A DNA stretch of 64,000 bases from an uncultured Enterobacteriaceae bacterium (lineage in GTDB: Bacteria > Myxococcota_A > UBA9042): NCBI GenBank assembly GCA_964447285.1, contig CAYURO010000001.1:1010-65009 (forward strand). The letters are read 5' to 3'. Positions 9,737 to 38,088 of the stretch are shown here, one piece after another. The notes beneath the pieces were generated by a model that was given only the letters and a program-made list of their open reading frames with translations, was not told the DNA's origin and ran no database searches. Both the position numbers and the translations under genes were made by a program. Numbering within the stretch: position 1 is the stretch's first letter; every line of letters starts with the position of its first letter.

Positions 9737-9865
9737 GTCAGGGGCCTCACGGTCGGGTACAGCGGCCCTCGATACACGGCGCGACGGCCGTCGTCAAACC
9801 GCACAGTGGACCGCAGGCGCGCATCGGGCTATAGACACACTCCTCACCGCCCAACTGGAGGACGC

Positions 9866-10444
9866 ATGGATGCTCGCAAGGACCGACTGATCGAGCTGTT
9901 GCTGCTGCACGCGTTCCAGGACCGGCCCGACCGCCCCTATCAGGCTTCGGGTGGGCAGCCTTCGCCCTATCACCTCGACGGCAAAGCGGTGGCGCTGACG
10001 ACGGAGGGGCAAACCCTCATTGGCGGGCTGGGTTACGAGTGCGCAAAGCGGCTGGGCGTCACCGTCGTGGGTGGCACGTCGGTCGCCGCGGACCCGTTTG
10101 CCCGCGCCGTGGCTACGCACAGCCTCACAAGATCGCGGCACGTGTCGGCGTTCGTGGTGCGACCGGGCGGTGCCATCGAGGGCGTGCCGGCCGCCGGAAC
10201 CCGCGTCCTCGTCGTGGACGACGTCTCGATGACCGGCGCGTCGCTGCAGACGGCGGTGGACCGCGCCCGTGAGGCTGGACTGGTGGTCGAGGATGCGCTG
10301 GTGGCCGTTGACCGTGAAGAGGGGGCTCGCGAAGCCCTGCGCGTTCACGGCGTCGAACTGCACGCGCTGGTCACGCTGCCTGAGATTCTGGCCCGCCGCG
10401 ACGTGGCGCGCGCCCATGGTGGCGAAACCGGTCCGGCCGTCTGA
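9866..10444 (+). CDS. pyrE: Orotate phosphoribosyltransferase.
   Basis: ORF 9806..10444, trimmed to the ATG at 9866 (MDARKDRLIELLL). It carries the PRTase PRPP-binding motif VLVVDDVSMTGASL. Confidence 0.8.
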   Translation: MDARKDRLIELLLLHAFQDRPDRPYQASGGQPSPYHLDGKAVALTTEGQTLIGGLGYECAKRLGVTVVGGTSVAADPFARAVATHSLTRSRHVSAFVVRPGGAIEGVPAAGTRVLVVDDVSMTGASLQTAVDRAREAGLVVEDALVAVDREEGAREALRVHGVELHALVTLPEILARRDVARAHGGETGPAV

Positions 10445-10471
10445 CGCTCAATTCCCGAAAGGCGGACCGCC

Positions 10472-11026
10472 TCAGTCGAACAGCCAGCTGACACCGAACT
10501 GCGCCGAAAAGCCGGTTCGTTGCAGGTTGTTGACAGCCCTCACGCCGATGCCCAGCTGCAAGTGCGGCCGCTCGTAAGTCCGGACTTGGTAGCGCATCCC
10601 GCCTTCCAGAAAGAAGCCGAGTGTGTCGAACACGCTGGTGCCTGCGTACATCAACTGGGTGCCGAACTCGCCATAGCCGCGCAGGGGAGCCCACGCATCC
10701 TGGGCCGACTCACCGCCCACCGTCGCCGCCACGGTGACCCACGGCCCTTGGCCCGTCGCGCCCAGCTGCGCCTCGCCGCCGAAGTACAAGGCGCGCGTGT
10801 GCCGTCTGGCGGTACCGCGCACAAACGGCCCCAGTGGATGGCCCTCGACAGGCAGGACGGCCACACCCAAGGCAAGTTCGCGCCCCAGCACATCGTTTCT
10901 GTCGTAATCCAGTGCCAGCACTTCACCCGCCGACGCCATCAGCAGCAACGCCGCGGTCAGGCTCAGCAAGTACGGCACCGGTCGTTGGTGGGGCAGCAGC
11001 ATGGGGCCGCGGTGTAGCGCAGGCAC
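10472..11026 (-). CDS. Small secreted protein, probably an outer-membrane beta-barrel (hypothetical).
   Basis: ORF 10472..11026. It has a signal peptide (LLSLTAALLLMASA) and alternating hydrophobic beta-strand patterning through the C-terminus (QFGVSWLFD). Confidence 0.4.
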   Translation of the reverse strand: MPALHRGPMLLPHQRPVPYLLSLTAALLLMASAGEVLALDYDRNDVLGRELALGVAVLPVEGHPLGPFVRGTARRHTRALYFGGEAQLGATGQGPWVTVAATVGGESAQDAWAPLRGYGEFGTQLMYAGTSVFDTLGFFLEGGMRYQVRTYERPHLQLGIGVRAVNNLQRTGFSAQFGVSWLFD

Positions 11027-11044
11027 CGGGGGCTGGCAAGCCGA

Positions 11045-13579
11045 TCACCTTGGCGGGCGGGGCTGAGACGACCACGAGCGCCCCTCCTGTTGCGCGGTGA
11101 CGCCCTTGCGACCGACCACCACCTCGACCCAGCCCTCTGTCGTCGGCCAAAGCGGGATGCCATAGCGGGCGTAGCGGTCGCTCACTTCCCGATGCGGAAA
11201 GGGCAGTTGCCCCCATGGGCGGGCGCCGACCACCGCCAGTCCCGGACGCACACCCTCCAGCAGCGGCGGCGTGCTCGAGGTGCGGCTGCCGTGGTGGGGT
11301 ACCTTCAGCACATCGACCGGTCGCAGCACCCGCGCCTTGGCCAGCGCCGCCTCCGCCGGAGCCTCAATGTCGCCTGCCAGCAGCACCCGACCGCCTGCCG
11401 TCGAGACCTCCAGCACCAGCGAATTATCGTTGAAGTCATGCGCGGCCGAGTAGGGTGCGTCCATGGGAAACGGCCACAGAACGCGGACTTGCACCCCACC
11501 CCAGCTGAAGGTCCGTTGGGATCCCGGCCCCGCAAAGTCACGCCACCGTGTCCCCTGCCGTGTCAATTCCGCGACCAACGCTTGGTGTTCCGCGCCACCG
11601 GGGACCTGCCCGTTCCACCACAGCTCGCCCACCGGCAGGACCCGCGCCACCGCCAGCAGACCGTTCTCGTGGTCCGGATGCCCGTGGGTCAGCACCATGC
11701 GGTCGATTCGCCGGATGCCGTGGTGTTTCAGGAACGGCACCACCGCCTGCGCCCCGATGCGCCCGTCGTCTGCCACCTCACCGCCCCCATCGACCAGCAG
11801 GTTTGACCCGTCCGGCAGCTCGACCAGCGTGCAGTCGCCATGCCCCACGTCCAGGAACGACAGTCGCACCGTACCTTGCGGAACCCCCTGCAACCACGCA
11901 GATCCCGCCCACGTCGCTGCCGTCGCAACCAACGCCACCGCCGCCACAGCGCGCCACCGCCCCCCATGCCACCATGCCGCGACGACCGCCGGCACCGTCA
12001 ATCCGGCCACCAGCGCCAGAGTCCCACTCGCTGACCACACCGGCCACCACGCCTTGGGAGACGCCACCAGCTTCTCCAAAGGCCACAGCGCCGCCTCACA
12101 CGCTGGCGCAATCCACGCCCGCACCGGACCCAGCCACGACCCCAACGCGGACAGGACCATCGCGGCAAGCGCCACCGGCAGCAGAAACCCCGCGTAGGGC
12201 ACGGCAAACCCGTTCGCCAGCGGTCCAACCAGCGGCAGCGCGCCAAAGACGGTCAGGGTCGCAGGAGCCGTCGACGACGATGGCGCAACGCAAGTCTTCA
12301 GGAACACGACGGTGTGATGCTTCAGCCGCGTTCGCCAGCCACCGTCTTCGGGCTGGTCCTGCCCCCAACCCGCCCATGCAAGGCCCAGCACGCCCAAGAT
12401 CGACAGCAGCAGCCCCACATCCGCCACCGCCACCGGGTCGACCAGCATCAGCACGACCGCCGCCAACCCGAGTGACTCGCCCAGCCCCGGCTGCCGTCCG
12501 CTCGCCCGCCCCAACACCAGCGCCGTCGCCATCACGGCCGCCCGCAGCGTGCTCGGCGCCGCCCCGGTCAGCAGCGCGTAGCCCCAGGTCGCCATCAGGC
12601 TCGGCACCGCTAGCAGCCGTTCACGCGGAAACCGGCGAAACAGCCCTCGCGCAAATCGCGTCGCCAGGAACTTCAACAACTCCCGCACCATCCACACGAC
12701 CAGCGCCAGGTGGCTGCCCGACACCGCCATCACATGGGCCGTCCCCGTCGCCCGCAGCCACACTTGCAGCGGCTCGTCGACGGCCCCCTTGTCCCCCAGC
12801 GCAAGGGCGGCAAACGTCTGGCCAGCGCGCCCCGGCACCGTGGTCGTCAGCGCGTCGCTCAGGTGCCTGCGCCACCGTCCGATGACGTGCAGCACGCCCC
12901 CCAGAGGATTCCGTGCCCATCCAAACGGTTCCGTCAGGGGCCGGTCCTCGAAGCTGATCTCGCCGACCCGCCGCACGCGCACGCCGGCCACCAAGCCTGC
13001 GCGCGTCCACGACTCTCGCGCATCCCAAGCTCCGGGGTTGCGAAAAGCGGGGGGGGGTGTCGTAAACGCCCGCACCCTCAAGCGATCTCCCAACTGCACC
13101 CGGACGTCGCGCCCGACGACATCGACGCGCACAAGGCCGCTCCTCGCTTCGCACGCCAACCGCCGCCGCTCAGGCTCCGGCAGGCAGCGCGCCGTCCATT
13201 GTGCGGTGAAGCGATGACCGACCGGACTCCACTCCGGCTCAGACGCCACCTCCAGGAGCTGCAGCGGCGCTTCCAAACCCGGCCTTGGCAGGTCCAGGGG
13301 TGGCAGCGGCCCCGGGGTCACGGCCTGCTCGGCCCGCACAGCCGCCACCAGCCCCAACGCGATCCAGGCGGCCAGCAGCAGCGGCCCGCGCAACCGCCGT
13401 CGCACCCCCCAAGTCCCCATAAGTACGCACGTTGATGCCAGCACCACGGTCGTCGCCGTCGGCAGGCCGCCGTGCAGCCCCACGCCTGCACCTGCCGTCA
13501 CCGCGACCGCTGCCGGCGCCCACACCCGCCCTTGCCAGCTCCACGCCATGCCCACCCGCCCCGGGGCGAAGAGGGCCAC
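11045..13579 (-). CDS. comEC: ComEC/Rec2-family DNA internalization channel protein (DUF4131 + competence domain + C-terminal metallo-beta-lactamase fold).
   Basis: ORF 11045..13579, 844 aa, polytopic. The C-terminal MBL domain carries the HxHxDH motif (RMVLTHGHPDHENG) and FLDVGHGDCTLVELPDGSNLLVDGG. The N-terminal start is uncertain. Confidence 0.8.
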   Translation of the reverse strand: MALFAPGRVGMAWSWQGRVWAPAAVAVTAGAGVGLHGGLPTATTVVLASTCVLMGTWGVRRRLRGPLLLAAWIALGLVAAVRAEQAVTPGPLPPLDLPRPGLEAPLQLLEVASEPEWSPVGHRFTAQWTARCLPEPERRRLACEARSGLVRVDVVGRDVRVQLGDRLRVRAFTTPPPAFRNPGAWDARESWTRAGLVAGVRVRRVGEISFEDRPLTEPFGWARNPLGGVLHVIGRWRRHLSDALTTTVPGRAGQTFAALALGDKGAVDEPLQVWLRATGTAHVMAVSGSHLALVVWMVRELLKFLATRFARGLFRRFPRERLLAVPSLMATWGYALLTGAAPSTLRAAVMATALVLGRASGRQPGLGESLGLAAVVLMLVDPVAVADVGLLLSILGVLGLAWAGWGQDQPEDGGWRTRLKHHTVVFLKTCVAPSSSTAPATLTVFGALPLVGPLANGFAVPYAGFLLPVALAAMVLSALGSWLGPVRAWIAPACEAALWPLEKLVASPKAWWPVWSASGTLALVAGLTVPAVVAAWWHGGRWRAVAAVALVATAATWAGSAWLQGVPQGTVRLSFLDVGHGDCTLVELPDGSNLLVDGGGEVADDGRIGAQAVVPFLKHHGIRRIDRMVLTHGHPDHENGLLAVARVLPVGELWWNGQVPGGAEHQALVAELTRQGTRWRDFAGPGSQRTFSWGGVQVRVLWPFPMDAPYSAAHDFNDNSLVLEVSTAGGRVLLAGDIEAPAEAALAKARVLRPVDVLKVPHHGSRTSSTPPLLEGVRPGLAVVGARPWGQLPFPHREVSDRYARYGIPLWPTTEGWVEVVVGRKGVTAQQEGRSWSSQPRPPR

Positions 13580-13610
13580 CGGTACGGGATGATCGCTACC
13601 ACGAGCAAAA

Positions 13611-13649
13611 CGCCGCGCGGCGCCGTGACGAATTCGTCAGGCGCCGCGC
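13611..13649. terminator. GC-rich imperfect inverted repeat (CGCCGCGCGGCGCC gtgACGAATTCGTcag GCGCCGCGC) with T-rich flanks, lying between the OMP stop and the comEC start.
   Basis: Read directly from the sequence. The central ACGAATTCGT is a perfect palindrome. A TTTTGG tract follows on the plus strand and TTTTG follows on the minus strand. Confidence 0.3.
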
Positions 13650-13687
13650 AAGCTTTCGTATTCTATTCGGTTTTGGCTAGGCTGGAG

Positions 13688-15388
13688 CTAGAATCGGTAC
13701 TGCGTCGACACGAGCACTTCCTGCTCATTGGTCTTCGGACCCACCGTCTCGCCCGAGCTGTTCAGGGCGCCAGCCACCTCGCGGAAGCGGTACAGCAGCG
13801 ACACGACGCCGATGTTGCGCCAGACGTACACGTGGGCGGCGGCGCGATACTGGTACTCGTCCAGCTGCTTGCGCAAATCGGTCTCGAGCTTGTCCGGACC
13901 GGCCAGTCGCTTTCCGGCCACATACGCGCCGTAGTCGGCCGCCAGCAGCAGCACCTTGGGGATCGCCAGCACGCCGACCTGAACGTTGTAGGCAAGCTGG
14001 TTGGCTCCGGGGATGATCGACTCCTGCTCGAAGTCGAGCGCGTACTTGCCGTACACCTCAGCCGTCGCAACAACCCGCTTGTAGCGGAAGACATTGTTCA
14101 CGTTGAAGGCGGGATAGCGCTCCTGCGCCCGCTGGTCGTACTTGGCGCCCAGCGTCAGGCCCCACGTCAGCGGCACGCTGGTGTAGAGGAACGGCGAGTC
14201 GAAGCGGCTGACGGTGCCGAACACATTCAGGCCGACCTGACCGCCGACGCCGTAGGTGTAATTCTCGTTGCCGTAAGTGAAGTAGCGACCGCCGACGTTG
14301 CCGGTCGACCGACCTGAGCCGCCCGCAGCAAACGCCCGGTACACCAGCTTGCCGGAGTGGCCAAGCGGACCCGACACTTCGACCGCGGCGCCGTTGCCCT
14401 GCTCGAATGCGTTGTAGAGGTAGTACGCGGGTTCGACCAGCAGTTGCTTCGACGTCGACACGATCAAGCCGCTGGAGAGGCCGCCGCCGCCGCTGTTCAG
14501 GTTCAGGAAGTGGCCGCTGGTGCCCAAGGGAACTTGGAACATCGCAAACGTCAGGCGCGGGGTGCGCTCTGCCCGCATGCTGACGAGGTAGAACGAGTTG
14601 GGGATCTGCAGGATCGGGCCAAACGACCGCAACTGCAGCTTGGTGAAGCGGGTGTCGGCCTGCTTCTTCTCCATGTCGTATGCGCCTTCGATGCCGGCGA
14701 CGACCGAGAACCGCATGCCGGGGTTGCCGCGGCAGACGGTCACTTCCGGGTCGAAACGGCAGCCAAAGTCGGCACAGTCGACCTTGCCGTCGTTGTCGTT
14801 GTCGACGCCGTCGGAGCACACTTCGTCGTTGCGCTCGCCGTCCTTGTCGCTGCCCTTGCCGATCAGGTCCTCCACGGACATGCCGTCGCGCAGCTCAGGC
14901 ACGTCGTCCGGCACGCTGTTCGCACCACCCGCGCCACCGCCGCTCTCAAGTGGCCCTTGCCACGAGCCACGGCAAGGTTTGGCCTGGTCGCAGTCGCTGT
15001 CGTCGCAGTCGACGAAGCCGTCGCCGTCGTTGTCGAACCAGTCGCCGCACTTCGCGTCGTCGTTCTCGGGGCCCGATCCGACCTTGCACAGGACGTCGCC
15101 TCTGCAGTCGGCGTCCGCGCAGTCGACCATGCCGTCGCCGTCGTCGTCCTTGCGATCGCCGCAATTCGTCTCTTTGGCACCGGAATTCGCCGCCGGAGCG
15201 GTCGCCGCCGGCGTCTCGGCCGCCGCCGCAGGAGCAACAACCGCCGCAGGAGCAACAGCCGCCGCAGGAGCAACAGCCGCCGCGGGCGCAGGAGCACCCG
15301 GCGCCGCGGGCTGACCCCACGCCGTCGTCACGAACGAACTTCCCGCCACCAGGGCTGCCATCGAAAACAGGGCTGCCAATCTCATCAT
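13688..15388 (-). CDS. Outer-membrane beta-barrel protein with an N-terminal region carrying 3 Cys-bracketed DxDxDG (EF-hand / thrombospondin-type-3-like) calcium-binding-type repeats.
   Basis: ORF 13688..15388. It has a signal peptide and an Ala/Pro-rich linker. The repeats are CGDRKDDDGDGMVDCADADC, CGDWFDNDGDGFVDCDDSDC and CSDGVDNDNDGKVDCADFGC. The C-terminal ~380 aa show amphipathic beta-strand alternation and end in the OMP-type terminal motif ...VSTQYRF. Confidence 0.6.
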   Translation of the reverse strand: MMRLAALFSMAALVAGSSFVTTAWGQPAAPGAPAPAAAVAPAAAVAPAAVVAPAAAAETPAATAPAANSGAKETNCGDRKDDDGDGMVDCADADCRGDVLCKVGSGPENDDAKCGDWFDNDGDGFVDCDDSDCDQAKPCRGSWQGPLESGGGAGGANSVPDDVPELRDGMSVEDLIGKGSDKDGERNDEVCSDGVDNDNDGKVDCADFGCRFDPEVTVCRGNPGMRFSVVAGIEGAYDMEKKQADTRFTKLQLRSFGPILQIPNSFYLVSMRAERTPRLTFAMFQVPLGTSGHFLNLNSGGGGLSSGLIVSTSKQLLVEPAYYLYNAFEQGNGAAVEVSGPLGHSGKLVYRAFAAGGSGRSTGNVGGRYFTYGNENYTYGVGGQVGLNVFGTVSRFDSPFLYTSVPLTWGLTLGAKYDQRAQERYPAFNVNNVFRYKRVVATAEVYGKYALDFEQESIIPGANQLAYNVQVGVLAIPKVLLLAADYGAYVAGKRLAGPDKLETDLRKQLDEYQYRAAAHVYVWRNIGVVSLLYRFREVAGALNSSGETVGPKTNEQEVLVSTQYRF

Positions 15389-15410
15389 GACCTCGTTGGC
15401 CCGGGTGGGG

Positions 15411-16686
15411 CTAGAACTCGCAGATGCGCTTGCGGGGTTTGCCGTTCTTGTCCTTCAGGCAGACGTCCACGGCGGGGTTCCAGTTGCAATCCCAGTCGTC
15501 GCAGTCGGCATACCCGTCCTTGTCGTTGTCGGCGCCGTCGCTGCACTTGGCGTTGCCGTCGCCGAGGCTCTCCTGACAAGCCTGCTTGACCGAGATGTCG
15601 GTCGAGTTGCGGCAGGAGTAGTCCTCGCAGTCCGTATAGCCGTTGCCGTCGTTGTCGATGTCGTCGCTGCAGCGGTCGAACGTGACCTCGAGGACCGACG
15701 CGCAGTACTTGACCACCGCCGAGTCGTCGGCCTGCGAGCACGAGTAGTCGCCGCAGTCCATGAAGCCGTTGCCATCGTTGTCGACGCCGTCCGAGCACTT
15801 CACGATCGTGTTCTCGCCGATGGAGATGCAGTACTCGATCGCCTCTTGGGTGCCCTTGGAACTACAGGAGAAGTCGTTGCAGTCGATGTAGCCGTTCTTG
15901 TCGTTGTCCAGGCCGTCGCTGCACAGGGCCACGGTGTCTTCGGCCAGAGCGGGCGCGTTGGCGCAGTACTCGGCGATGGCGGAGTCCTTGGACTTGCTGC
16001 ACGAGAAGTCCAAGCAATCGATGTACTTGTTGCCGTCGTTGTCGATGCCGTCCTGGCACTTGGGCAGCGTGTCTTCAGCTTCGGCGACCGGCAGGCACGC
16101 AGCGACCGTGTCGCACCCGGAGTCGGTGCAGTCGGTTTTGCCGTCGCCGTCGTTGTCCTTGCCGTCCGTGCACGCGGCCGAGTCGACGTCCGAATCCTCG
16201 GTGCACACCGTCACGAACATGCCCTTGCTACAGCCGTAGTCCTTGCAGTCCGTGTAGCCGTTGCCGTCGTTGTCCTTGCCGTCACCGCACAATTCGTTCG
16301 TGAACTCGCGCAGGCAGCAGGCCTCGGCAAGGTTCTGGCACTTGCGGTCACCGCAATCGAACTGACCGTCGTCGTCGTTGTCCTGAAAGTCGGCGCACAG
16401 CTCGACGGTATTCTCGACCTCGAAGGAAGGCACGGCCGGCACGTACTCGCCGCAGAACGTCGACAGCAGCAGGCAATCGACGTCATCGCAGTCGATCATG
16501 CCGTCCTGATCGTTGTCGATGCCGTCGGCACAGGTCTGGTTGTCGGCCTCGTAGCCGAGCACGGGCAAGACGCCGTTCTTGGTCACAGGCACGTCGTAGC
16601 AGCCGGACATCGCGACCGCGAGCAGGCCAGCAACGCAGGCCACACCGACGGTCGGGCGAGTAGGCAGGGTTCGAGAGGACTGCATG
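15411..16686 (-). CDS. Lipoprotein built from 9 tandem Cys-bracketed DxDxDG repeats (putative Ca-binding extracellular scaffold).
   Basis: ORF 15411..16850, trimmed to the ATG at 16686 (MQSSRTLPTRPTVGVACVAGLLAVAMSGC). The nine repeats match the consensus C-x-D-G-x-D-N-D-x-[DN]-G-[YF]-x-D-C-x-D-[YF]-[SG]-C, for example CADGIDNDQDGMIDCDDVDC and CSDGVDNDGNGFMDCGDYSC. Confidence 0.65.
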
Positions 16687-16726
16687 CGCTCCTCAGATGG
16701 GCGGAAGGTCCGCTCGGCGCGACGAA

Positions 16727-17506
16727 TCAATCGTGCAAGCACGTCGCCGCTCCCTGGCCGTAGCGGCGGGAGAACGGCACGTACAGGTGACAGGCCCCTG
16801 CTTCGTGGCAGACCCACTGGCACGTCTTGTAGATGTCCAGATGGATCCACTTCTCGGAGTGGCCATCCTCGGTCGAGACCGTGCGGTTGTAGGTCGTGCC
16901 GTCGTAGCCCTCGTCATTCGAGTGCGCGGACGTCAGCACAAACTTCGGCACACCCTTGGCCCACATGCCGCGCCTCTCGGCGATCGCGGCCTTCTGCGCG
17001 ACGATGTACCGATCGGGCGAAGGCAGCTTGGTCACCGTCATCGCGTGCGCCAAGCCCTTGCGGATCTGGTCCACGGCGAGGTCCGGGCAGTCCCACAGGA
17101 TGCGGCCGTAGCCGTCGCGGTTCAGGTCTGAGGTGCAACGCCAAGAGCCTCGTCGGGCGTTCAGCGTCGCCATCTTGGCGTTGACGTACAGTTCGGACGC
17201 CTTCCAGTCGCCCCACTTGTGCACGTTGCCGAAGCTTTCCAGTGTGTTGTAGCCGGAAAGCCGGGCCTTGGTACCGGCGTACGGGCCCGCCAGAACCGTA
17301 AAGCTGTCGCCGTCGTTGAACCAGACGGGCGACAGCACACCGTTCAGCAGCACGCGAGAAGCAGGCCTGGCCCAGCCTTCGGAGGCGGCCGCCAGCAGCG
17401 CAACGATGCCGACCAGCAGGCCCACAGCAACGCGCACGCTGATCGGCGACCGAAGGCGAATTGTGTGGAGCGAAGGATCAGCCGAGTGGGCCAGGAAGCC
17501 GGGCAT
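16727..17506 (-). CDS. Membrane-anchored staphylococcal-nuclease (SNase / thermonuclease)-like secreted nuclease.
   Basis: ORF 16727..17506. It has an N-terminal TM/signal anchor (VAVGLLVGIVALLAAA) and SNase-like motifs: FNDGDSFTV (DGDT-like), ARLSGYNTLE (RLxGIDxPE-like), DGYGRILWDC (YGR), ERRGMW. Confidence 0.65.
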   Translation of the reverse strand: MPGFLAHSADPSLHTIRLRSPISVRVAVGLLVGIVALLAAASEGWARPASRVLLNGVLSPVWFNDGDSFTVLAGPYAGTKARLSGYNTLESFGNVHKWGDWKASELYVNAKMATLNARRGSWRCTSDLNRDGYGRILWDCPDLAVDQIRKGLAHAMTVTKLPSPDRYIVAQKAAIAERRGMWAKGVPKFVLTSAHSNDEGYDGTTYNRTVSTEDGHSEKWIHLDIYKTCQWVCHEAGACHLYVPFSRRYGQGAATCLHD

Positions 17507-17576
17507 GGGAAAGCCCCTTGGTCACGTGCAGCGGAGGTGGCGGGGGGAGCCGAGCGCGCGTGCGAGCGGACTCAGA

Positions 17577-18173
17577 CTACGGAGCAGCCGAAGGAGCAAG
17601 ACCCTCGTCGCCACGACCGTCGACCATGATCGCGAAGTTCGGCTCGCGATACTCGTTCCGACCGCAAGTGGCCATCACCATCTTGATGACCTGGAAGGGA
17701 ACGGTGCGGTCCGACTGAATGATGACCTTCCGGCTCTCCCGAACCTTCTGGGGGTTCCTGGGGTTCTGCTGGAATTTCCAAGACGTCTTCAGCACCTCAG
17801 CCAGCGGCTTGATGTCCCAGCTGGGGTACTTGACCTCGTTGACGTCGCCCAGGCTCATGATGCGCTTGTTCTCAAACAGCATCTCGCCGAGGGTGCTGCC
17901 ATCGCCGCGGGTCAAGGCGACCATGGGCGCGCGCTCGAGTTCGGCCTTCGACGAGGCCTTGGGCATGGCGACGTTCGGATTGACCAGCATCAGCTCGCCG
18001 GCCGCGCTGAACGACTGGATCAGAAAGATGACGAGCATGATGAACAAGTCGATCATCGGCACGACATTCAACGTCGCGAAGATCGCCTTGGATCCGCCGG
18101 TCCTGACCGTCTTTTGGATGGTCTTGAGGGCAATGCCGTGACCGGCTCGTGATCCGGGGTGGTGGACAGCCAT
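17577..18173 (-). CDS. ExbD/TolR-family protein (H+-channel stator partner), paralog 2.
   Basis: ORF 17577..18173. It has a single TM segment with the conserved Asp (ATLNVVPMIDLFIMLVIFLI) and a periplasmic ExbD-like domain (KVIIQSDRTVPFQVIKMVMATCGRNEY). Confidence 0.75.
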   Translation of the reverse strand: MAVHHPGSRAGHGIALKTIQKTVRTGGSKAIFATLNVVPMIDLFIMLVIFLIQSFSAAGELMLVNPNVAMPKASSKAELERAPMVALTRGDGSTLGEMLFENKRIMSLGDVNEVKYPSWDIKPLAEVLKTSWKFQQNPRNPQKVRESRKVIIQSDRTVPFQVIKMVMATCGRNEYREPNFAIMVDGRGDEGLAPSAAP

Positions 18174-18244
18174 CTCGTTCCTCTGTCTAGGGCCCGCCGT
18201 TGGAGGCGGATCGGTTCGTCAGCGCCAGAAAGGGCCGCCAAGGG

Positions 18245-18853
18245 CTAGTTGAAGTCTGTGAACCCTTCGGCCTTCAGAAGGTTCTGATCGCCGACGGCAG
18301 GGTTTCTCAGGCAATTCTTCTTGGCCGCATCATCGATGCAGGAGCTGAGGATCGCGTCGAGGGTGCCGATCAAGTGCAGGTACTGCACCTTGTCTGACGC
18401 CACGACCATCACCTTGACCTTGTCGCCCAAGCCGGCCTCTTTCATGAAGCCTGCCAGAGTCTTCCGCAGTTCAGGGCGGTTGTACTTCTTGAATACTTCG
18501 ATCTGGCCCTGACAATTCGACGCCGTACCCTTGCCGCGGCAGAGCCGGAACTCACCGTCGGTCGGGATGCGCTTGGGCTGGGCCAGCTCAGGCTTGGTCT
18601 CGAGATTGAACAGGTTGACCAGATAGCCGGAGGGCGTGATGGCCACGTTGATCTTCGGTTCCTTCTTGGGCTGCTCCTTCGGAGGAGTCTTGCTTGCCTT
18701 GGGAAGGGCCTGGTCGACGTCGACGCGGGACATCTGCGTCCACACCGCCGAGATCAGCAGGAAGCAGATCGTGCACGCCAGCAGATCGATGAAGGGCACG
18801 ACGTTCAGTGTCGCGTCGGCTACGCCGCCTTTTCCTGAAGAACCACCACCCAT
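18245..18853 (-). CDS. ExbD/TolR-family protein, paralog 1.
   Basis: ORF 18245..18889; the probable start is the in-frame Met of MGGGSSGKGG (about 18853). It has a TM segment with the conserved Asp (TLNVVPFIDLLACTICFLLI) and the C-terminal motif KVMVVASDKVQYLHLIGTLD. Confidence 0.75.
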   Translation of the reverse strand: MGGGSSGKGGVADATLNVVPFIDLLACTICFLLISAVWTQMSRVDVDQALPKASKTPPKEQPKKEPKINVAITPSGYLVNLFNLETKPELAQPKRIPTDGEFRLCRGKGTASNCQGQIEVFKKYNRPELRKTLAGFMKEAGLGDKVKVMVVASDKVQYLHLIGTLDAILSSCIDDAAKKNCLRNPAVGDQNLLKAEGFTDFN

Positions 18854-18974
18854 CGTCTCTCTCCTGTCCGTTCGTCGAGCGTTGATCACCGCCCCGCGGA
18901 AGCCGGGACGGTCTCACGGAGCGCGCCGGCCGCTGCCGGTCAGCCCCAACCGGGCGAGTACTGCTGCTCTGCCT

Positions 18975-19022
18975 GCGGCCCCGGAGCCATCCCGTATCTC
19001 AGGGATGACTCCGGGCCGCGGG
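18975..19022. other. Long imperfect hairpin (GCGGCCCCGGAGCCATCCC gtatctca GGGATGACTCCGGGCCGC) in the exbB-exbD intercistronic region.
   Basis: Read directly from the sequence. The stem is about 18 bp with one bulge. No U-run follows it on the coding (minus) strand, so it is more likely an mRNA processing or stability element than a terminator. Confidence 0.3.
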
Positions 19023-19098
19023 GCACGTCGAGCAGACGAGTCGGTCAGACACCCGCTCCCTCGTCAGGCCGTAACCCGCCGTGGAGCTACGCACCGCA

Positions 19099-19764
19099 TC
19101 ACGCGGCGGCGTCATCCTTGATGTCGCCCATCTTGTTGCGGTTGGCGACGATCAGGTTGAGCACGCGAACCGTGCCCTCGTCGATGTCCGCCTTGATTTC
19201 CTTGGCCTTGGAGGTCAGGACCGCAAACGCGAGCACGCCGATGATACCGGTCGCAAGACCGAACGCCGTGCAGTTCATGGCCTCCGAGATGCCCTGCGAG
19301 AGCAGGGTGGAGCGCTGCGACGGATCGACGTCCGGACGGCCGATGGCCGCGAACGTATTGATCAGACCCGAGATCGTGCCGAGCAGACCAGCCAGGGTGG
19401 CCGTGTTGCCGAGCAAGTTCAGGTAGTCGACGCGCTTCTCGATCTGCGGGATCTCGCGCAGATAGGCCTCGTCCATGGCCGCTTGGACTTCTTCGTCCGA
19501 GCGCTTCACCTTGAGGACGCCAGCGTGAACGATGCGAGCCAGCGGGTACTGGTAGGTCGAGCAGACCTTCAGCACGCGGTTCAGGTCGCCCTTGAGGATG
19601 GGCACTTGCAGGAGCTTGATGAACTCCTCCTTCTTCACGCTCGACCGGATGTAGAGCACGAAGATGCGCTCGAACATGATGGCCAGAATGAAGACGAGGT
19701 GCCCGAGGATGGGCCACATTCCCCAGCCGCCTTCTTCAAAAATCTCTGCGATGGAGTGAAACAT
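19099..19764 (-). CDS. MotA/TolQ/ExbB-family proton channel.
   Basis: ORF 19099..19764. It has three TM helices (WGMWPILGHLVFILAIMFERIFVL; LLGNTATLAGLLGTISGLINTFAAI; AFGLATGIIGVLAFAVL) and a cytoplasmic loop typical of TolQ/ExbB. Confidence 0.85.
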   Translation of the reverse strand: MFHSIAEIFEEGGWGMWPILGHLVFILAIMFERIFVLYIRSSVKKEEFIKLLQVPILKGDLNRVLKVCSTYQYPLARIVHAGVLKVKRSDEEVQAAMDEAYLREIPQIEKRVDYLNLLGNTATLAGLLGTISGLINTFAAIGRPDVDPSQRSTLLSQGISEAMNCTAFGLATGIIGVLAFAVLTSKAKEIKADIDEGTVRVLNLIVANRNKMGDIKDDAAA

Positions 19765-19802
19765 CGGTCGTCTGCTCCGTGAAGATGCTGTCTGCTCGAT
19801 AC

Positions 19803-19818
19803 CCGCACAGGTGTGCGG
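19803..19818. promoter_or_regulatory. Perfect 16-bp palindrome CCGCACAGGTGTGCGG (7-bp arms, 2-bp spacer) 39-54 bp upstream of the exbB start; candidate operator.
   Basis: Read directly from the sequence. It lies in the 573-bp divergent intergenic region between exbB (minus) and the gene at 20338 (plus). Confidence 0.25.
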
Positions 19819-20337: not shown

Positions 20338-21036
20338 ATGCGCAGAAGCGACATCGAAGAAATTGAGGCCATGTTGGACGACGACCCGCGTGAGGCGCTG
20401 AGCTTGGCGAGTCGCATCGTTGATGAGTCGCCTGACGACCCGGACGGGTGGGCCTGGCGTGCAGAGGCGCAGATCGCCCTGGGTCAGGCTGAGAACGCCC
20501 TGAAGTCGCTGGCGGAGTACGTGCAGCGCGACCCGGAGTGGATCGAGGCGTATACGATGCGTGCGGTGCTGCTGACAGAGCTCGCGCGGTTCAGCGACGC
20601 CCACGTCGAAGTCGAGGTGGCTCGCGCGATCGATAGCGAGGACCCTCGGTTGCAGCGCGCCGAAGCCGTGTGGCACGAGCTGCAGGGGCACTTCCCCGAG
20701 GCCGACAAGCTGTACGCGCTTGCGGCGGAGGGCGACCCGGGGCTGTATCCGGCGCCTCCCCGGTTCGACCGTCCGCGGGCCCAGGCGGCGATTCTGAAGG
20801 TGCTGCGCGAGATCGCCAAGGACGGCCTGAAGTTGCAGCCCGTGTTTGAGGAAGTACCCGTGCCCGCACCGACCAAGGGTGGCAAGCTGCTGACGCGGGC
20901 GCTGGACCTGCGGGACAAGAGCACCGTCGTGGTCTATCTGCGCAACCTGGAACGCGAACTGGACGATGAGTCGCAGATCGAGGACTTGGCCGAGGTGTTC
21001 GAGGACTGTCTGGCGGAGCTGGTCGAGGCGAACTGA
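20338..21036 (+). CDS. Acidic cytoplasmic hypothetical protein with a TPR-like N-terminal half.
   Basis: ORF 20338..21036. Its amino-acid composition is realistic and acidic. The overlapping 383-aa minus-strand ORF (19954..21105) has an R/L/Q-rich shadow composition and was rejected. Confidence 0.5.
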   Translation: MRRSDIEEIEAMLDDDPREALSLASRIVDESPDDPDGWAWRAEAQIALGQAENALKSLAEYVQRDPEWIEAYTMRAVLLTELARFSDAHVEVEVARAIDSEDPRLQRAEAVWHELQGHFPEADKLYALAAEGDPGLYPAPPRFDRPRAQAAILKVLREIAKDGLKLQPVFEEVPVPAPTKGGKLLTRALDLRDKSTVVVYLRNLERELDDESQIEDLAEVFEDCLAELVEAN

Positions 21037-21058: not shown

Positions 21059-22231
21059 TCAGGCGGCCGGGTCGCTTGCCGGTGGTGCAGCCCGGCGGCG
21101 CTCATAGGCCAGCAGGCGCTCCACAGGGGCCACCCGCTCCATCGCCGCCGTGACGTAGGCCAGTGATTCGACGGGGCGCTGCAGGTCGCGTAGGCCCCTT
21201 GCTGTGGCCACGGCGAGGATGGCCTGATCGCGTCGATGTGCGTTGACCAGCAGCCAAGCTGTCAGCTCAAACCGCTCTGCCAGCCGCACCCGGCGCTCAG
21301 CGTCGAACCAGCCCCGTACAACGTCGGCACGGCGGTCTACGAGCACGCGGCTCGCCTCAGCGTCGTCTGGAGGCAGCGGCGTCGCCAGCGGGAGGACCAG
21401 TCCGTCGTCCAGCCGTCGCAGGAGCGTCGGGTCAGCGGCCAGCCAGTTCTCGCACCAGGGATCGCGAGCCAGCGACTCGCCTTGCGCGATGCGTTCGTCC
21501 AAGTGCGCCTCGTCCTCCGCGTCCAGGGCAACCTCGATCGCGTGGATCGGCTGAGCCTCTGATACGGCGCGGCGGACCTCGGGAAGATCGCCCTCGACGG
21601 TCTTGCCGAGCGCGAGTCGGCGGTCGAGACCCCAGCGCAGCCGCCCTGCAGCGAAAGCAGCCGGAACTTCTACCGGAATCACGCTGAACTGAACCTTCAG
21701 CCGGTCCATCATCTCACGCTCATGGGTGCGCGAGGTGTCGGGCAGGTAGAGCGCCGACAGCAGGCCCTCTTCGTCGGAGACCACGCCAACCGCGCACCAC
21801 GGGCCGTCGATTGTCGACCAACCGCCCAAGAACAGCACCTGAGTGCCGATCTTGTCGAACGAGGTCGCGAAGCTGGGCAAGGGGTCGGGATGGGCGGCCA
21901 TGTCAACGGGGGGGCGGGCGGAGGTCCGATCGGGGACGATCACGCCGCGTTGCCGGGCGCGAAACAGCAGCTTTTTCGTGTGCTTGGCGGTCTCCTTGTG
22001 GACCGTGAGCTCGCCGAGGGTCGCGACCAGGGCTAGCAGGCCGCGGGCATCGGCCTCGACCAGCAGCGCAAGCTCGACGTCCGGACTCATGCCTCGCAGC
22101 GCAGCTTGGGTCACGGGGACCTCGCCGCTGAGGAGGGCCAGCGCCCGGACGACCTCGCCGACGCGCTGCGCTGGGGCCTGGCCCGTGCGGAGCCAGCCCA
22201 GAGCGGTGTTGGTGGCAGGGGAGTTGGGCAT
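21059..22231 (-). CDS. Hypothetical protein with no recognisable domain, encoded 7 nt downstream of gltX.
   Basis: ORF 21059..22480, trimmed to the ATG at 22231 (MPNSPATNTALGWL). The first 83 codons of the ORF would overlap gltX. Confidence 0.45.
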   Translation of the reverse strand: MPNSPATNTALGWLRTGQAPAQRVGEVVRALALLSGEVPVTQAALRGMSPDVELALLVEADARGLLALVATLGELTVHKETAKHTKKLLFRARQRGVIVPDRTSARPPVDMAAHPDPLPSFATSFDKIGTQVLFLGGWSTIDGPWCAVGVVSDEEGLLSALYLPDTSRTHEREMMDRLKVQFSVIPVEVPAAFAAGRLRWGLDRRLALGKTVEGDLPEVRRAVSEAQPIHAIEVALDAEDEAHLDERIAQGESLARDPWCENWLAADPTLLRRLDDGLVLPLATPLPPDDAEASRVLVDRRADVVRGWFDAERRVRLAERFELTAWLLVNAHRRDQAILAVATARGLRDLQRPVESLAYVTAAMERVAPVERLLAYERRRAAPPASDPAA

Positions 22232-30116: not shown

Positions 30117-30352
30117 GTGCTTCAATCTCCTGAGATTGGGAACGCTCAACCCGCTCTCCTCCGAACCTTGGAGGCCAACGCAAGGCCGAGACTGACCTGC
30201 CGGAAACACCGATGTACCGGCAGGACGTACCCACCAAGCACGCACCATGGTAGTGGAGTGCGCCAGCGTGTCAACTCGCTTGTCGTCAAGAAGGCAAAAC
30301 CGGCATACGGTGACCTCAACGCGTGTTGTATCCGACCCTACGGAGGAGTCCC

Positions 30353-32335
30353 ATGCCGAAGTTCGAGCTCGTCTCGCCCCACCGTCCCGCCGGTGACCAA
30401 GGGGCGGCCATCGCTGGCCTTTCCCTTGGATTACAGCAAGGTGAGGCCGCACAGGTCCTGTTGGGGGTCACCGGGTCCGGCAAGACCTTCACGATGGCGT
30501 GCGTGATCGCCGAGCTGCAGCGGCCGGCGCTTGTGCTCGCCCCGAACAAGATTCTGGCGGCGCAGCTTCACGCGGAGTTGAAGGGGCTGTTTCCCCACAA
30601 CGCTGTTGAGTATTTCGTCAGTTATTACGACTACTACCAGCCCGAGGCTTACGTTCCGTCGACCGACACCTACATCGAGAAGGACTCGATGATCAACGAC
30701 GAGATCGACCGGATGAGGCACGCCGCGACCTATGCGTTGCTCGAGCGGCGCGACGTCGTGATCGTGGCGTCGGTGTCGTGCATCTACGGTATCGGCGCGG
30801 CAGAGTCGTATGTCGGGATGCGGGTTCCACTGGCGGTTGGTCAAGAGATTCGCAGGGATACGCTGCTGCGCAAGCTGGTCGACGTGCAGTACGAGCGCAA
30901 CGACTTCGAGCTTGCGCGCGGCGCCTTTCGGGTGCGCGGTGACGTGATCGAGATCCAACCGGCCTATGCCGACGACCGGGCCATCCGGATCACGCTGTGG
31001 GGCGACGAGATCGAGCGTCTGGAGACCATCGATCCGCTGCGGGGCACCGTGCTGGCGTCGCAGGAAAACACGAACATCTATCCGAATTCGCACTACGCAA
31101 CGCCCGCGGAGCAGTTGATCGCAGCGCGGGAGACCATCGCGGTCGAGCTGCGGACGCGACTGCAGGAGCTTCGCGATCAAGGCAAGTTGCTGGAGGCGCA
31201 GCGGCTTGAGCAGCGCACGATGTTCGACCTGGAGAATCTGGAGAGTCGGGGCTTCACCAACGGCATCGAGAACTACGCGCGCCACTTGTCGGGGCGACTG
31301 GCGGGCGAGCCGCCGCCTACGCTGGTAGACTATTTCCCCCGCAATTTCATCACATTCATCGATGAGTCGCATGTCACCGTCGGACAGGTCGGCGGCATGT
31401 TCCGGGCGGACCGGTCGCGCAAGGAGACGTTGGTCGATCATGGGTTCCGGCTGCCCAGCGCGCTGGACAACCGCCCGCTGCGGATCGAAGAGTTCATGCA
31501 GCGAACTCCCCAGATTGTCTATGTTTCCGCCACACCCGGCGACGAAGAGCTTCGCCAGACCCATGGCGTGATCGTCGAGCAGCTGGTTCGGCCGACGGGG
31601 CTAGTGGATCCTGAGGTCGAGGTGCGCCCCGTACGGAGCCAGGTCGATGATCTGTTGGGTGAAATACGGATTGTCGCGCAAGCTGGCGAGCGGGTGCTGG
31701 TGACCACGCTGACCAAGCGGATGGCCGAGCATCTGACGGAATACTACGAGGAGTTGGGGGTGCGGGTGCGCTACATGCACTCCGACGTCGAAACTTTGGA
31801 GCGCATCGAGCTGATCCGGGGCCTGCGCGCGGGCGACTTTGACGTGCTGGTCGGCATCAACCTGTTGAGAGAAGGCCTTGATCTTCCAGAGGTTTCACTG
31901 GTTGCCATTCTGGACGCCGACAAGGAGGGCTTCCTGCGCTCGCGTCGGTCGCTGATCCAGACGATCGGGCGCGCGGCGCGCAACGTGAACGGCAGGGTGA
32001 TCCTGTACGCCGACCGCATGACCGACTCGATGGCGCAGGCGATCGCCGAGACTGAGCGACGGCGCACGGCCCAGCAAGCGCACAACCTGGCCAACGGCAT
32101 CACGCCGCGCACGATCGTCAAGGCGCACGCGCAGTCCAAGGCCGCGATGGCAGCCGGCCCGTTGCATGATGCCGAGGTGCTGGCGCGTGGTCGCAGCAAG
32201 GCGGATCTGGAGAAGCAGATCGTCGAGGTGCGCAAGAAGATGAAGGCGGCGGCCGGCGAGCTCGCCTTCGAAGAGGCAGCGCGGCTGCGCGATGAAGCGA
32301 AGCACTTGGAGCAGGTGTTGATCGCGATTGCGTAG
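30353..32335 (+). CDS. uvrB: Excinuclease ABC subunit B.
   Basis: ORF 30323..32335, trimmed to the ATG at 30353 ([10 protein letters not shown]), which has a GGAGGAG Shine-Dalgarno 4 nt upstream. It has the helicase Walker A motif [18 protein letters not shown], the beta-hairpin region and a C-terminal UvrC-interaction helix. Confidence 0.9.
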
Positions 32336-37164: not shown

Positions 37165-38075
37165 GCCAGGAACCCTCCTGCGCGAAAGACCTTCATCACG
37201 ACCTCGTCGAACGGCAGCGCGAGATCGACCTGCAGGCAGCGGGCGCCGGCTTTGCGAGCCGCACGTTCGATCTCGCCAGTGAACCCATCAAAAGCCTTGC
37301 GGTAATTCTCCATCAACGCCGGTGTCAGGCACAGCTCGCGCACATCGCCCGTCTCGCAGTCGACCAGCGCCAGATCGCCGAGCACCGGCGCGTCGAGCAG
37401 AGTCCGATCGACCAGATGCAACACCATCGGTTCGTAGCCGCGAAAGGCGAGGTAGCGCAGGCTGTCGCCCAAGCCCGCCGGGTCATAGAAGTCACTGAGC
37501 AGCACCACCAAGCCGCGGCGGGGCTGGTGGCGGGCAAAGGCCTCGATCGAGCGATGGATTTCCGTGCGCCCCCCCTGCTTGACGTCAGACAGTACACGCA
37601 GGATGCGAAAGAACTGGCTGCGCCCGCGCAGGGGTCGCATCGGAGCCTCGATGCCCTCGCCAAACGGCACGACCGACACCCGATCCAGATTCGACAGCGA
37701 GATGTACGACAGCGCCGCGGTGACCTGCAGCGACCGGTCGAACAGGCTGTGCTGGCCGTCTGCCGCCATCGTCATCGAGTTCGAGCGGTCGAGCAGGAAG
37801 TAGACGCTCAGGTCTTCTTCCTCTTCGTAAAGGCGCAGTTGCAGGCGCTCGGTGCGCGCATACAGCAGCCAGTCGATGGCCCGAGGGTCGTCGCCGGGGG
37901 CGTACTCGCGGTGGTCGGCGAACTCGATGCCGCTGCCGATCTTGCGCGACCGTCGCATCGCCCGCTGGCCGGACGTGGCGATGCGACGAGACAACAACGC
38001 AAGCTGCTCGACGCGGCCGAGAAAGGCGGCGTCGAACAGGTCGTCGCGGATCTTGCGGGCGGAACCGTCGGCCAA
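37161..38075 (-). CDS. DUF58-family protein (MoxR-associated).
   Basis: ORF 37161..38075. It shows the typical DUF58 motifs GIEFADHREYAPGDDPRAIDW and FLLDRSNSM. Confidence 0.7.
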   Translation of the reverse strand: MADGSARKIRDDLFDAAFLGRVEQLALLSRRIATSGQRAMRRSRKIGSGIEFADHREYAPGDDPRAIDWLLYARTERLQLRLYEEEEDLSVYFLLDRSNSMTMAADGQHSLFDRSLQVTAALSYISLSNLDRVSVVPFGEGIEAPMRPLRGRSQFFRILRVLSDVKQGGRTEIHRSIEAFARHQPRRGLVVLLSDFYDPAGLGDSLRYLAFRGYEPMVLHLVDRTLLDAPVLGDLALVDCETGDVRELCLTPALMENYRKAFDGFTGEIERAARKAGARCLQVDLALPFDEVVMKVFRAGGFLA

Positions 38076-38088
38076 AGCGAACTCCCTG

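Follow-up and report, generated by a model that had tools for sequence, protein, structure and literature searches.

A nuclease-fold, repeat-lipoprotein and porin-like gene trio and its exbB-exbD-exbD and comEC neighbours in a myxococcotal genome

Genes and hairpins of the locus

Eight genes lie in a row on the minus strand of the window, which here means the whole analysed stretch of 64,000 nucleotides from contig CAYURO010000001.1. Their existence is confirmed, as a check of the open reading frames bore out the coordinates of a preliminary description with small corrections only, and a MAG contig of 94% identity carries matching NCBI gene models of 221, 202, 199, 259, 422, 554 and 834 aa. 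The row starts with an ExbB/TolQ-family proton channel of 221 aa (19099..19764, minus strand; PF01618, E 2.5e-24) that stays below all NCBIfam equivalog cutoffs for tolQ and exbB. It is followed by two ExbD/TolR paralogs, one of 202 aa counted from its ATG (18245..18853, minus; PF02472, E 2e-10), a model that agrees with the NCBI call in locus L174, and one of 198 aa (17577..18173, minus; PF02472, E 1.2e-12). Both were said to keep the transmembrane aspartate, which can be read directly in VPFIDLL of the first and VPMIDLF of the second paralog. The genes had been pictured as closely packed, but exbB and the first exbD are separated by a spacer of 245 nt with a strong stem-loop (18975..19019, minus; fold z -2.7). 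Divergently from exbB runs a gene for a TPR protein (20338..21036, plus; TPR_19, E 3.4e-11). As described earlier, genes for TonB, a TonB-dependent receptor, Glt proteins or a pilus are absent, none being found in a Pfam scan of 28 window ORFs.

The next gene encodes an exported staphylococcal-nuclease-fold protein of 259 aa (16727..17506, minus) in which a signal peptide and an SNase domain are followed by a C-terminal beta domain that is conserved and rich in Cys and His. It had been described as membrane-anchored; instead, the window protein and its homologues start with a Sec signal peptide that stops at an AxA-type site directly before the conserved RVFLNG, and judged by its sequence the protein is probably not anchored in the membrane. 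Taken alone, it reaches 14.4 bits and thus remains below the Pfam SNase threshold of 21, but relatives of the protein, its predicted fold and a profile search all bear out the assignment. The equivalents of SNase residues R35, E43, R87, Y85 and D21 are all invariant in the aligned homologues (n=18 and n=32), and the modelled SNase fold with its catalytic residues is supported. Since the position of the Ca-ligand D40 is invariantly Asn in the aligned homologues, nuclease activity is not assured. Six cysteines are also invariant in the homologues, which suggests an oxidising compartment.

The second gene of this trio encodes a lipoprotein of 424 aa (15411..16685, minus), the existence of which was described correctly and the start of which is shifted by one position, from 16686 to 16685. 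It contains nine acidic double-disulfide repeats of the pattern C-x-D-G-x-D-N-D-G-D/N-G-x-x-D-C-x-D-x-x-C. The earlier repeat counts, nine for the lipoprotein and three for the barrel protein, were reproduced with NF033662 (224 bits in nine stretches and 85 bits, respectively; cutoff 41) and a regex scan, which found no further copies in the window. Among 63 lipoprotein homologues nearly all have a signal peptide and Cys, and each has 6-17 repeats. The repeat matches the C-rich domain of teneurin-4 (PDB 7plp, E 0.004) over a short stretch of 24 residues, and the crystal structure of this domain contains three Ca2+ per domain (PMC9058538). Through this match the Ca binding that had been proposed from the DxDxDG motifs stands as a prediction.

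The third gene encodes an outer-membrane porin-like protein of 566 aa (13688..15388, minus), in which a signal peptide, an Ala/Pro-rich stretch and three repeats of the lipoprotein type precede a barrel that starts at about residue 225. Structure prediction upheld the proposed outer-membrane barrel and refined it to a plug-less porin type with 16 strands, with moderate model confidence (mean pLDDT 62). In a structure search the top match of the model was OprP, pointing to a porin fold, with a similarity at the level of the fold only (10% identity). At the sequence level no porin family was detectable, as the barrel had no Pfam match and an exhaustive profile search returned only its own 73 representatives. 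N-terminal extensions of even-stranded barrels are as a rule periplasmic, and the repeat-bearing N-terminal end is presumably located there.

Between the barrel stop codon and the start of comEC a terminator-like GC hairpin is followed by UUUU (13607..13649, minus), and the fold of 13575-13695(-) has an MFE of -47.2 kcal/mol (z -2.26). ComEC/Rec2 (11045..13579, minus; 844 aa) comprises DUF4131, Competence and MBL (Lactamase_B) domains and scores 227.5 bits against TIGR00361 (cutoff 190). The last gene encodes a small secreted protein of 184 aa (10472..11026, minus) outside the conserved unit. Labelled earlier as like a small outer-membrane protein, it lacks a Pfam or NCBIfam match even at E 10; its relatives in L003 and L091 are encoded at a distance of about 7 kb, and the one in L003 has the opposite orientation.

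Conservation of gene order

Which of these genes belong together? Related loci were collected via the barrel protein, and the denominators given here count loci with enough DNA on the relevant side. The lipoprotein gene is found upstream of the barrel gene in 61/61 loci and the SNase-like gene in 51/51, and wherever the flanking DNA of a related locus suffices, the three genes stand side by side in the same direction. In contrast, ExbB-ExbD-ExbD is found upstream in 4/37 loci, all in one lineage, and ComEC downstream in 4/46, only in this same ExbB-linked lineage; in the remaining loci, about 90%, neither an ExbB nor a ComEC homologue occurs within ±10 kb. The preliminary description had combined the genes to a single PMF-driven DNA uptake machine. 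What stands of it is the coherent module of nuclease, repeat lipoprotein and repeat-bearing barrel, whereas the membership of the motor and of ComEC does not hold, as only three of the eight genes travel together across Myxococcota. No other neighbour family exceeded 9 of 94 loci in the neighbourhood survey, which also revealed no linked secretion-system component, and the flanks of the trio in Haliangium sp. and in a genome of 9.3 Mb are unlike those in the window.

ExbB identity is 83-95% within the linked lineage and then drops to about 55%; none of the best 120 ExbB matches, all with at least 52% identity, is a protein of M. xanthus. The divergent TPR gene accompanies exbB throughout the lineage (L164-166, L169-171, L172, L174), and synteny extends to gltX and, in some members, to a YfhO-like gene. 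The linkage of motor and ComEC is for this reason read as neighbourhood conservation. In one member, L169, exbD2 is followed not by the nuclease gene but by a gene for a coiled-coil AMIN protein of 1538 aa. On the other hand, the block from exbB to comEC persists in the lineage despite rearranged downstream flanks (L001, L003), which could mean some selection for linkage. A rough NJ tree did not separate derived from ancestral linkage of the trio to exbBDD and comEC.

A long GC hairpin occurs in the exbB-exbD1 spacer of every lineage member examined, and its sequence is not conserved. Canonical intrinsic terminators lie between the exbD2 orthologue and the nuclease gene in L001, L084, L085, L091 and L164. 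They are absent in the window and L172, and in the sub-lineage of the window the motor and trio genes may therefore be co-transcribed. At the site matching the post-barrel hairpin, clean hairpin and T-run terminators are present in several lineages (L092, L120, L139, L142, L145 and L158), compared to which the terminator of the window is weaker.

Interpretation and alternatives

On balance we regard the region as three adjacent, separable units and not as one machine. Unit A, the divergent TPR gene and exbB-exbD-exbD, would constitute a proton-driven stator, the TonB/TolA-like partner of which is not encoded in this region. Unit B would comprise, in this order, an exported SNase-fold phosphodiesterase, a lipoprotein with 6-17 repeats and a 16-strand barrel with three repeats at its N-terminus, and unit C would be comEC alone. 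With the same reserve, we take unit B to be a self-contained three-gene operon, widespread in Myxococcota, that in most lineages needs neither A nor C. Its most likely function would be breakdown and scavenging of nucleic acids at the outer membrane. Like the teneurin C-rich domain, the repeats could fold around Ca2+, and the resulting rigid rods could tie the lipoprotein to the N-terminal arm of the porin. At this complex the nuclease would cut nucleic acid to small 3'-phosphorylated products, and the dedicated porin would move the substrate or the products across the outer membrane, allowing saprophytic or predatory myxobacteria to scavenge DNA or RNA. We infer here the topology of the repeats, their docking to each other, the substrate of the nuclease and what the porin carries in which direction; no link of the trio operon to phosphate or nucleic-acid regulation was found. 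In the lineage of the window unit B would be situated between A and C by inherited gene order, and its sub-lineage would have lost the terminator after exbD2.

Alternatively, barrel and lipoprotein could carry or anchor the SNase-like enzyme on the cell surface or on vesicles, and extracellular DNA would be degraded to remodel the matrix, to support predation or to escape DNA traps, without feeding an uptake channel. The strict linkage of the three genes, the six invariant cysteines of the exported nuclease and Ca-binding repeats of a kind met in extracellular proteins would fit such a display or export device, but a role of the 16-strand porin fold in protein export is not known, the barrel's extension would normally face the periplasm and no secretion-system component is linked, and we consider this reading unlikely. 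Ranking below it, and doubtful to us, is a structural role, in which repeat rod and porin anchor form a Ca2+-stabilised tether or spacer of the envelope and the SNase-fold protein is a binding module or a phosphodiesterase for substrates other than nucleic acids; the invariant R35, E43, R87, Y85 and D21 equivalents are the pattern expected of a working active site and not of a binding scaffold. We place last, as improbable, a lineage-restricted, pilus-independent and PMF-driven uptake machine, in which ExbB-ExbD-ExbD energises lipoprotein and porin, the nuclease processes DNA and ComEC imports one strand. The seven-gene block from exbB to comEC is intact in 8/8 linked loci examined even with differing flanks, the exbD2-nuclease terminator is missing in the window and L172, and effects of TonB systems on natural transformation are reported for Riemerella and Acinetobacter (PMC8383284, PMC8811193). 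Against it speak the many loci in which the trio occurs without either neighbour, the terminators flanking the trio on both sides in most lineage members, the different gene after exbD2 in L169, the absence of a TonB-like transducer and the nature of the barrel as a plug-less porin and not a TonB-dependent transporter. Moreover, ComEC is near-universal, and only one lineage has it beside the trio.

Comparison with known systems

The motor genes resemble AglRQS of M. xanthus and the ExbB-ExbD1-ExbD2 energisers of TonB systems in the succession of one TolQ/ExbB-like gene and two TolR/ExbD-like genes, the latter two each with the transmembrane Asp, and the sizes of AglR, AglQ and AglS (245, 162 and 194 aa; PMC3169522) are comparable with those of the window proteins. 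They differ from these systems in lacking a nearby gene for a Glt protein, TonB, TolA or a TonB-dependent receptor.

The closest known family of the exported enzyme is staphylococcal nuclease/thermonuclease (PF00565; E. coli YncB-type homologues). Extracellular or periplasmic nucleases that make DNA available as nutrient are ExeM/ExeS of Shewanella, Dns/Xds of Vibrio and EddB of Pseudomonas. The trio nuclease is like them in being exported, probably Ca-dependent and plausibly feeding nucleotide or phosphate uptake, but they belong to other nuclease families and are not known to share a fixed operon with genes for a dedicated porin and a Ca-repeat lipoprotein. For the barrel the nearest systems are the phosphate/anion porins OprP/OprO and the general 16-strand porins DcaP, Omp32 and OmpM1, from all of which it is distinguished by an N-terminal extension built of Cys repeats of the Ca-binding type.

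These repeats and the teneurin C-rich domain, whose relatives in Ca coordination are thrombospondin type-3 repeats and LDL-receptor class A modules, are both acidic and disulfide-bracketed, and C-x-D-x-x-D-N-D-G-D-G-x-x-D-C-x-D-x-x-C aligns with the teneurin-4 Ca2+ ligands D840, D843, N844, D845, D847, D851 and D854. The position of D856 is variable in the bacterial repeats, the bacterial unit has four cysteines compared to six in teneurin and, unlike in teneurin, it is strung together in 3-17 tandem copies in envelope proteins.

Conservation of the cluster across loci

The preliminary description read eight co-directional minus-strand genes of the window (G+C ~68%) as a candidate machine for DNA processing or uptake driven by the proton motive force. 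The eight reading frames are borne out with small corrections, namely exbB (19099-19764), exbD1 (18245-18853), exbD2 (17577-18173), a gene for a staphylococcal nuclease (SNase)-like protein (16727-17506), a gene for a repeat lipoprotein (15411-16685, the start being corrected to the ATG at 16685), a barrel gene (13688-15388), comEC (11045-13579) and a frame proposed to encode a small outer membrane protein (10472-11026), and the NCBI gene calls of a MAG contig with a 94% identical barrel protein match these models in size and order. The gap of 70 nt between exbD2 and the nuclease gene also stands, but the exbB-exbD1 spacer is given as 245 nt. Pfam and NCBIfam searches agree with the assignments of ExbB, both ExbD proteins, ComEC and the nine- and three-repeat proteins, but the product of 10472-11026 has no match in either library even at E 10. 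The reading frame at 9794-10417 (-) has a gene-like GC content by codon position and is without a Pfam match.

The unity of the eight genes did not survive comparison with relatives. Window proteins were located by tblastn in 91 distinct barrel-carrying loci from genomes and metagenomes; scanning genomes with the full-length barrel alignment returned mostly matches to the repeats only and 11 full-length loci, and an alignment of the barrel alone was then used on metagenomes. Wherever enough flanking DNA was available, the lipoprotein gene (61 of 61 loci) and the SNase-like gene (51/51) lie upstream of the barrel gene. Among the loci found through the barrel, ExbB-ExbD-ExbD lies upstream in 4 of 37 and ComEC downstream in 4 of 46 with sufficient flanks, and in the remaining loci tblastn found no ExbB or ComEC homologue within ±10 kb. 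The search was sensitive enough for such an absence to count, since an ExbB of 35% identity was detected in another locus. The flanks of the trio are unrelated in a contig of Haliangium and in a genome of 9.3 Mb, where a guanylate cyclase or pyruvate kinase gene lies upstream of it and genes for cadherin-like giants or a deaminase lie downstream. Moreover, all-against-all clustering of the flanking reading frames yielded no further partner of the trio, any other family being limited to at most 9 of 94 loci. The trio of nuclease-like, lipoprotein and barrel genes is thus the conserved entity of the region, invariant in all loci examined, and motor and comEC are linked to it in one lineage only.

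The three proteins of the core

The HMM of the acidic double-disulfide repeat (NF033662, cutoff 41) scores 224.1 bits over nine stretches in the lipoprotein and 85.2 bits over three in the barrel protein, and a six-frame motif scan of the window finds exactly 12 repeats (9 + 3) and none elsewhere. The lipoprotein has a lipobox, its signal peptide being followed by Cys (LLAVAMSG-C in the window); a hydrophobic leader with Cys recurs in nearly all of 63 homologues, which carry 6-17 repeats each. A G-Y-E motif is kept ~12 residues after this Cys in homologues, and position +2, next to the lipid-modified Cys, is frequently occupied by Asp (C-D-Y), Asn, Tyr or Glu (loci L090, L094, L096, L100, L148 and others). 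In E. coli an Asp at +2 keeps a lipoprotein in the inner membrane; these Myxococcota may follow another sorting rule.

In phmmer searches the repeat matches the C-rich domain of the animal protein teneurin-4 (7plp_A, E 0.004) and contains the acidic Ca-ligand motif of that domain, D-x-x-D-N-D-G-D-G-x-x-D-C-x-D. The 1.5 Å structure of the teneurin-4 domain (7PLP) holds three Ca2+ ions with a list of their ligands (PMC9058538), and the acidic residues of the repeat match those that hold Ca2+ there. By this analogy the prediction that the DxDxDG repeats bind calcium acquires a structural precedent, although the teneurin domain has six Cys in a 1-3, 2-5, 4-6 pattern and the bacterial repeat has four. 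The repeat is a module widespread beyond Myxococcota, occurring also in MAG proteins of Saprospiraceae, Candidatus Peribacteria, Woesearchaeota, Pacearchaeota and Nanoarchaeota (loci L011, L019, L035, L047, L055, L056, L061 and others), and its likeness to the teneurin domain may bear on the origin of the latter. A literature search on the name of the repeat found no paper using it.

The product of 16727-17506 has the OB-fold core of SNase and appears to be a divergent member of the thermonuclease family, and database labels of its relatives already name this family. The window protein reaches 14.4 bits against PF00565 (gathering threshold 21), and a phmmer search of the PDB with it alone gave no relevant match. 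All 18 relatives match PF00565 at E ≤ 1 (best E 1.5e-8), and the profile of relatives, which was needed for the PDB, retrieves 265 thermonuclease and SND1 sequences with E down to ~2e-3. The equivalents of the catalytic residues Arg35, Glu43 and Arg87 and of Tyr85 (R82, E90, R135 and Y133) are invariant in alignments of 18 and 32 sequences, the invariant positions corresponding to D19/D21, R35, T41, E43, Y85 and R87 of SNase. hhalign places D131-x-Y-G-R135 on D83-K-Y85-G-R87, and by inspection the spacing R-x4-N-T-x-E equals that of R35-x4-D40-T41-x-E43. The Ca2+ ligand pair of SNase is kept in part: D21 has its equivalent in D67, but the position of D40 is invariantly Asn87. Asn is still able to ligate Ca2+. 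Homologues begin with cleavable Sec signal peptides that end in an AxA-type site, so that the protein would be exported and probably soluble, and not membrane-anchored as had been proposed. The conserved C-terminal beta domain of ~70 residues, with invariant Cys and His, found no structural match.

For the barrel protein an AlphaFold model of moderate confidence (mean pLDDT 62, ~75 in the barrel) predicts the fold of 16-strand, OprP-like porins. In Pfam the protein has no match even at E 10, neither to Porin_O_P nor to another porin family, and the precomputed label PF27998 on one homologue was not reproduced by a Pfam search. Searched exhaustively against 1.84 billion representatives, a profile of the barrel brought up 73 proteins at E ≤ 0.001 and gave no detectable connection with any known porin family; the 73 are unnamed in the library, consistent with their being the barrel family itself. 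Homologues number in the hundreds, and all named ones belong to Myxococcota and are annotated "hypothetical protein". The barrel is a new sequence family with a predicted porin fold.

Gene order and transcription signals in the linked lineage

The loci in which exbB-exbD-exbD and comEC flank the trio include the window, whose ExbB falls into a tight group of 83-95% identity before a drop to ~55%. Shared in this lineage is the order DsbA-like, guanylate kinase, gltX, a hypothetical gene of ~390 aa, the divergently transcribed TPR gene, exbB-exbD-exbD, trio and comEC; some members also have a YfhO-like gene on the far side of comEC. Such sharing has the look of a gene order passed on by descent, not of one selected as a functional cluster. 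The reading frame directly after gltX (21059-22201, -, ~380 aa in the window) has gene-like codon-position GC and no Pfam match, and it keeps its position at 372-398 aa in four lineage loci (L164, L169, L172 and the MAG contig L174). The TPR gene (20338-21036, +) is divergent from exbB and holds its place in all members; in loci L169-171 its product is fused to a Zincin_1 domain. The assignment of ComEC is confirmed, with DUF4131, Competence and MBL domains and 227.5 bits against TIGR00361 (cutoff 190), and in L172 comEC lacks a gene call but is present by tblastn. Barrel domains arranged in a rough NJ tree put the linked loci on neighbouring basal branches, and the tree settles neither their monophyly nor the choice between an ancestral and a derived linkage. 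Farther off in the window, proteins with VWA, BatA N-terminal and DUF58 domains form a BatA/VWA/DUF58-type cluster (32345-38108, -) that adjoins uvrB (30314-32335, +) and is unrelated to the trio.

In L169, whose ExbB is 83% identical, the place of the nuclease gene directly after exbD2 is taken by a gene for a coiled-coil protein of at least 1538 aa (10195-14808, +) with AMIN domains at both ends; it recalls a spacer of the TolA-like or PilQ-associated kind and is a candidate for the output protein of the motor. Behind an ExbB-ExbD-ExbD set of 55% identity elsewhere lie unrelated genes.

A consensus scan of the window for promoters and terminators was uninformative (0 promoters, terminators at shuffle level), and what proved informative was folding of individual spacers together with the same spacers in relatives. 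Canonical intrinsic terminators, a GC hairpin with a T-run, lie directly 3' of exbD2 in L001, L084, L085, L091 and L164, and directly 3' of the barrel gene in L092, L120, L139, L142, L145 and L158; after the window's barrel gene (13607-13649) there is a hairpin followed by UUUU (fold z -2.26). The 70-nt exbD2-nuclease spacer of the window contains no terminator, nor does that of L172, so that in this sub-lineage transcription of the motor operon may read through into the trio. Furthermore, the exbB-exbD1 spacer (109-420 nt) forms a long GC-rich hairpin in every lineage member (L001, L003, L084, L085, L091, L164, L169, L172), differing in sequence and strong in the window copy (18975-19019, -). 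Acting as a partial terminator or by stabilising the mRNA, this hairpin may set the ExbB:ExbD ratio.

Comparison of loci and terminators thus split the cluster, and the data fit three units: the TPR gene with exbB-exbD-exbD, the nuclease-lipoprotein-porin operon, and comEC. As a lesson in method, tight co-directional clustering in one genome gave the look of an eight-part machine, which ~90 loci and their terminators resolved into three units.

Possible function and known systems

Support for the three-gene core is strong. It is uncharacterised, and nothing relevant came up when the literature was searched for Myxococcota operons that combine nuclease, porin and lipoprotein. How could such a core work? 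In the mechanism proposed here, Ca2+ would stiffen the repeats into rods that join the lipoprotein to the N-terminal arm of the porin, nucleic acid would be cut at this rod-porin complex by the exported SNase-type enzyme, and the porin would pass the substrate or its products, amounting to nucleic-acid scavenging. Such a device would bear on the harvest of nucleic acids by myxobacteria from prey and detritus and would assign a role to a repeat of bacteria that resembles the Ca-binding C-rich domain of teneurins in animals.

Other readings rank below scavenging. The trio might be a surface-display device for the exported nuclease, or a Ca-stabilised structural tether in which the SNase fold is non-catalytic, a proposal against which the invariance of the catalytic residues speaks. 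Also ranked lower is the motor-coupled uptake machine first proposed, now restricted to the linked lineage. A composite of these ideas strikes us as quite improbable: an undescribed outer membrane device for nucleic-acid acquisition, common to many Myxococcota, in which lipoprotein and porin arm supply a Ca2+-rigidified rod of repeats like the teneurin C-rich domain, and this rod holds an SNase-type nuclease on a dedicated anion porin or beneath it, and in which, in the sub-lineage of the window, loss of the exbD2 terminator fused the trio transcriptionally to an ExbB-ExbD-ExbD stator beside ComEC, allowing motor-assisted, pilus-independent DNA uptake. The components of the trio are of known kinds; it is their combination that is undescribed, and the function is inferred only.

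The motor belongs to broad families, ExbB to PF01618 (MotA_ExbB) and both ExbD paralogs to PF02472, the latter keeping the transmembrane Asp within their TM helices (VPFID and VPMID), as had been noted. All NCBIfam scores for exbB, exbD, tolQ and tolR lie far below the equivalog cutoffs, TolQ for instance at 61.9 bits vs 221. In L167 (7146-11947), from a Deltaproteobacteria MAG, two back-to-back divergent ExbB-ExbD-ExbD sets adjoin a FUR-family regulator, their ExbBs 52% and 35% identical to that of the window (tblastn); a 334-aa gene following ExbB-ExbD-ExbD there was considered as an SNase-like protein and rejected. A Tol-Pal system can be dismissed for the window, as nuclease, lipoprotein and barrel genes follow exbD2, with no tolA, tolB or pal. 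The same holds for a TonB-dependent uptake system, the barrel being a plug-less porin on the model; in agreement with the preliminary description, the 28 reading frames scanned contain no TonB, TonB-dependent receptor, Glt or pilus domain, and no ComEA, ComF or DprA domain was found among them either. An ExbB-ExbD-ExbD stator without TonB encoded nearby is an orphan motor whose output is worth finding. Its set of one TolQ-like and two TolR-like genes corresponds to that of the AglRQS gliding motor of M. xanthus (MXAN_6862-60; PMC3169522), and the likeness to AglRQS, as to ExbB-ExbD1-ExbD2, is one of composition only.
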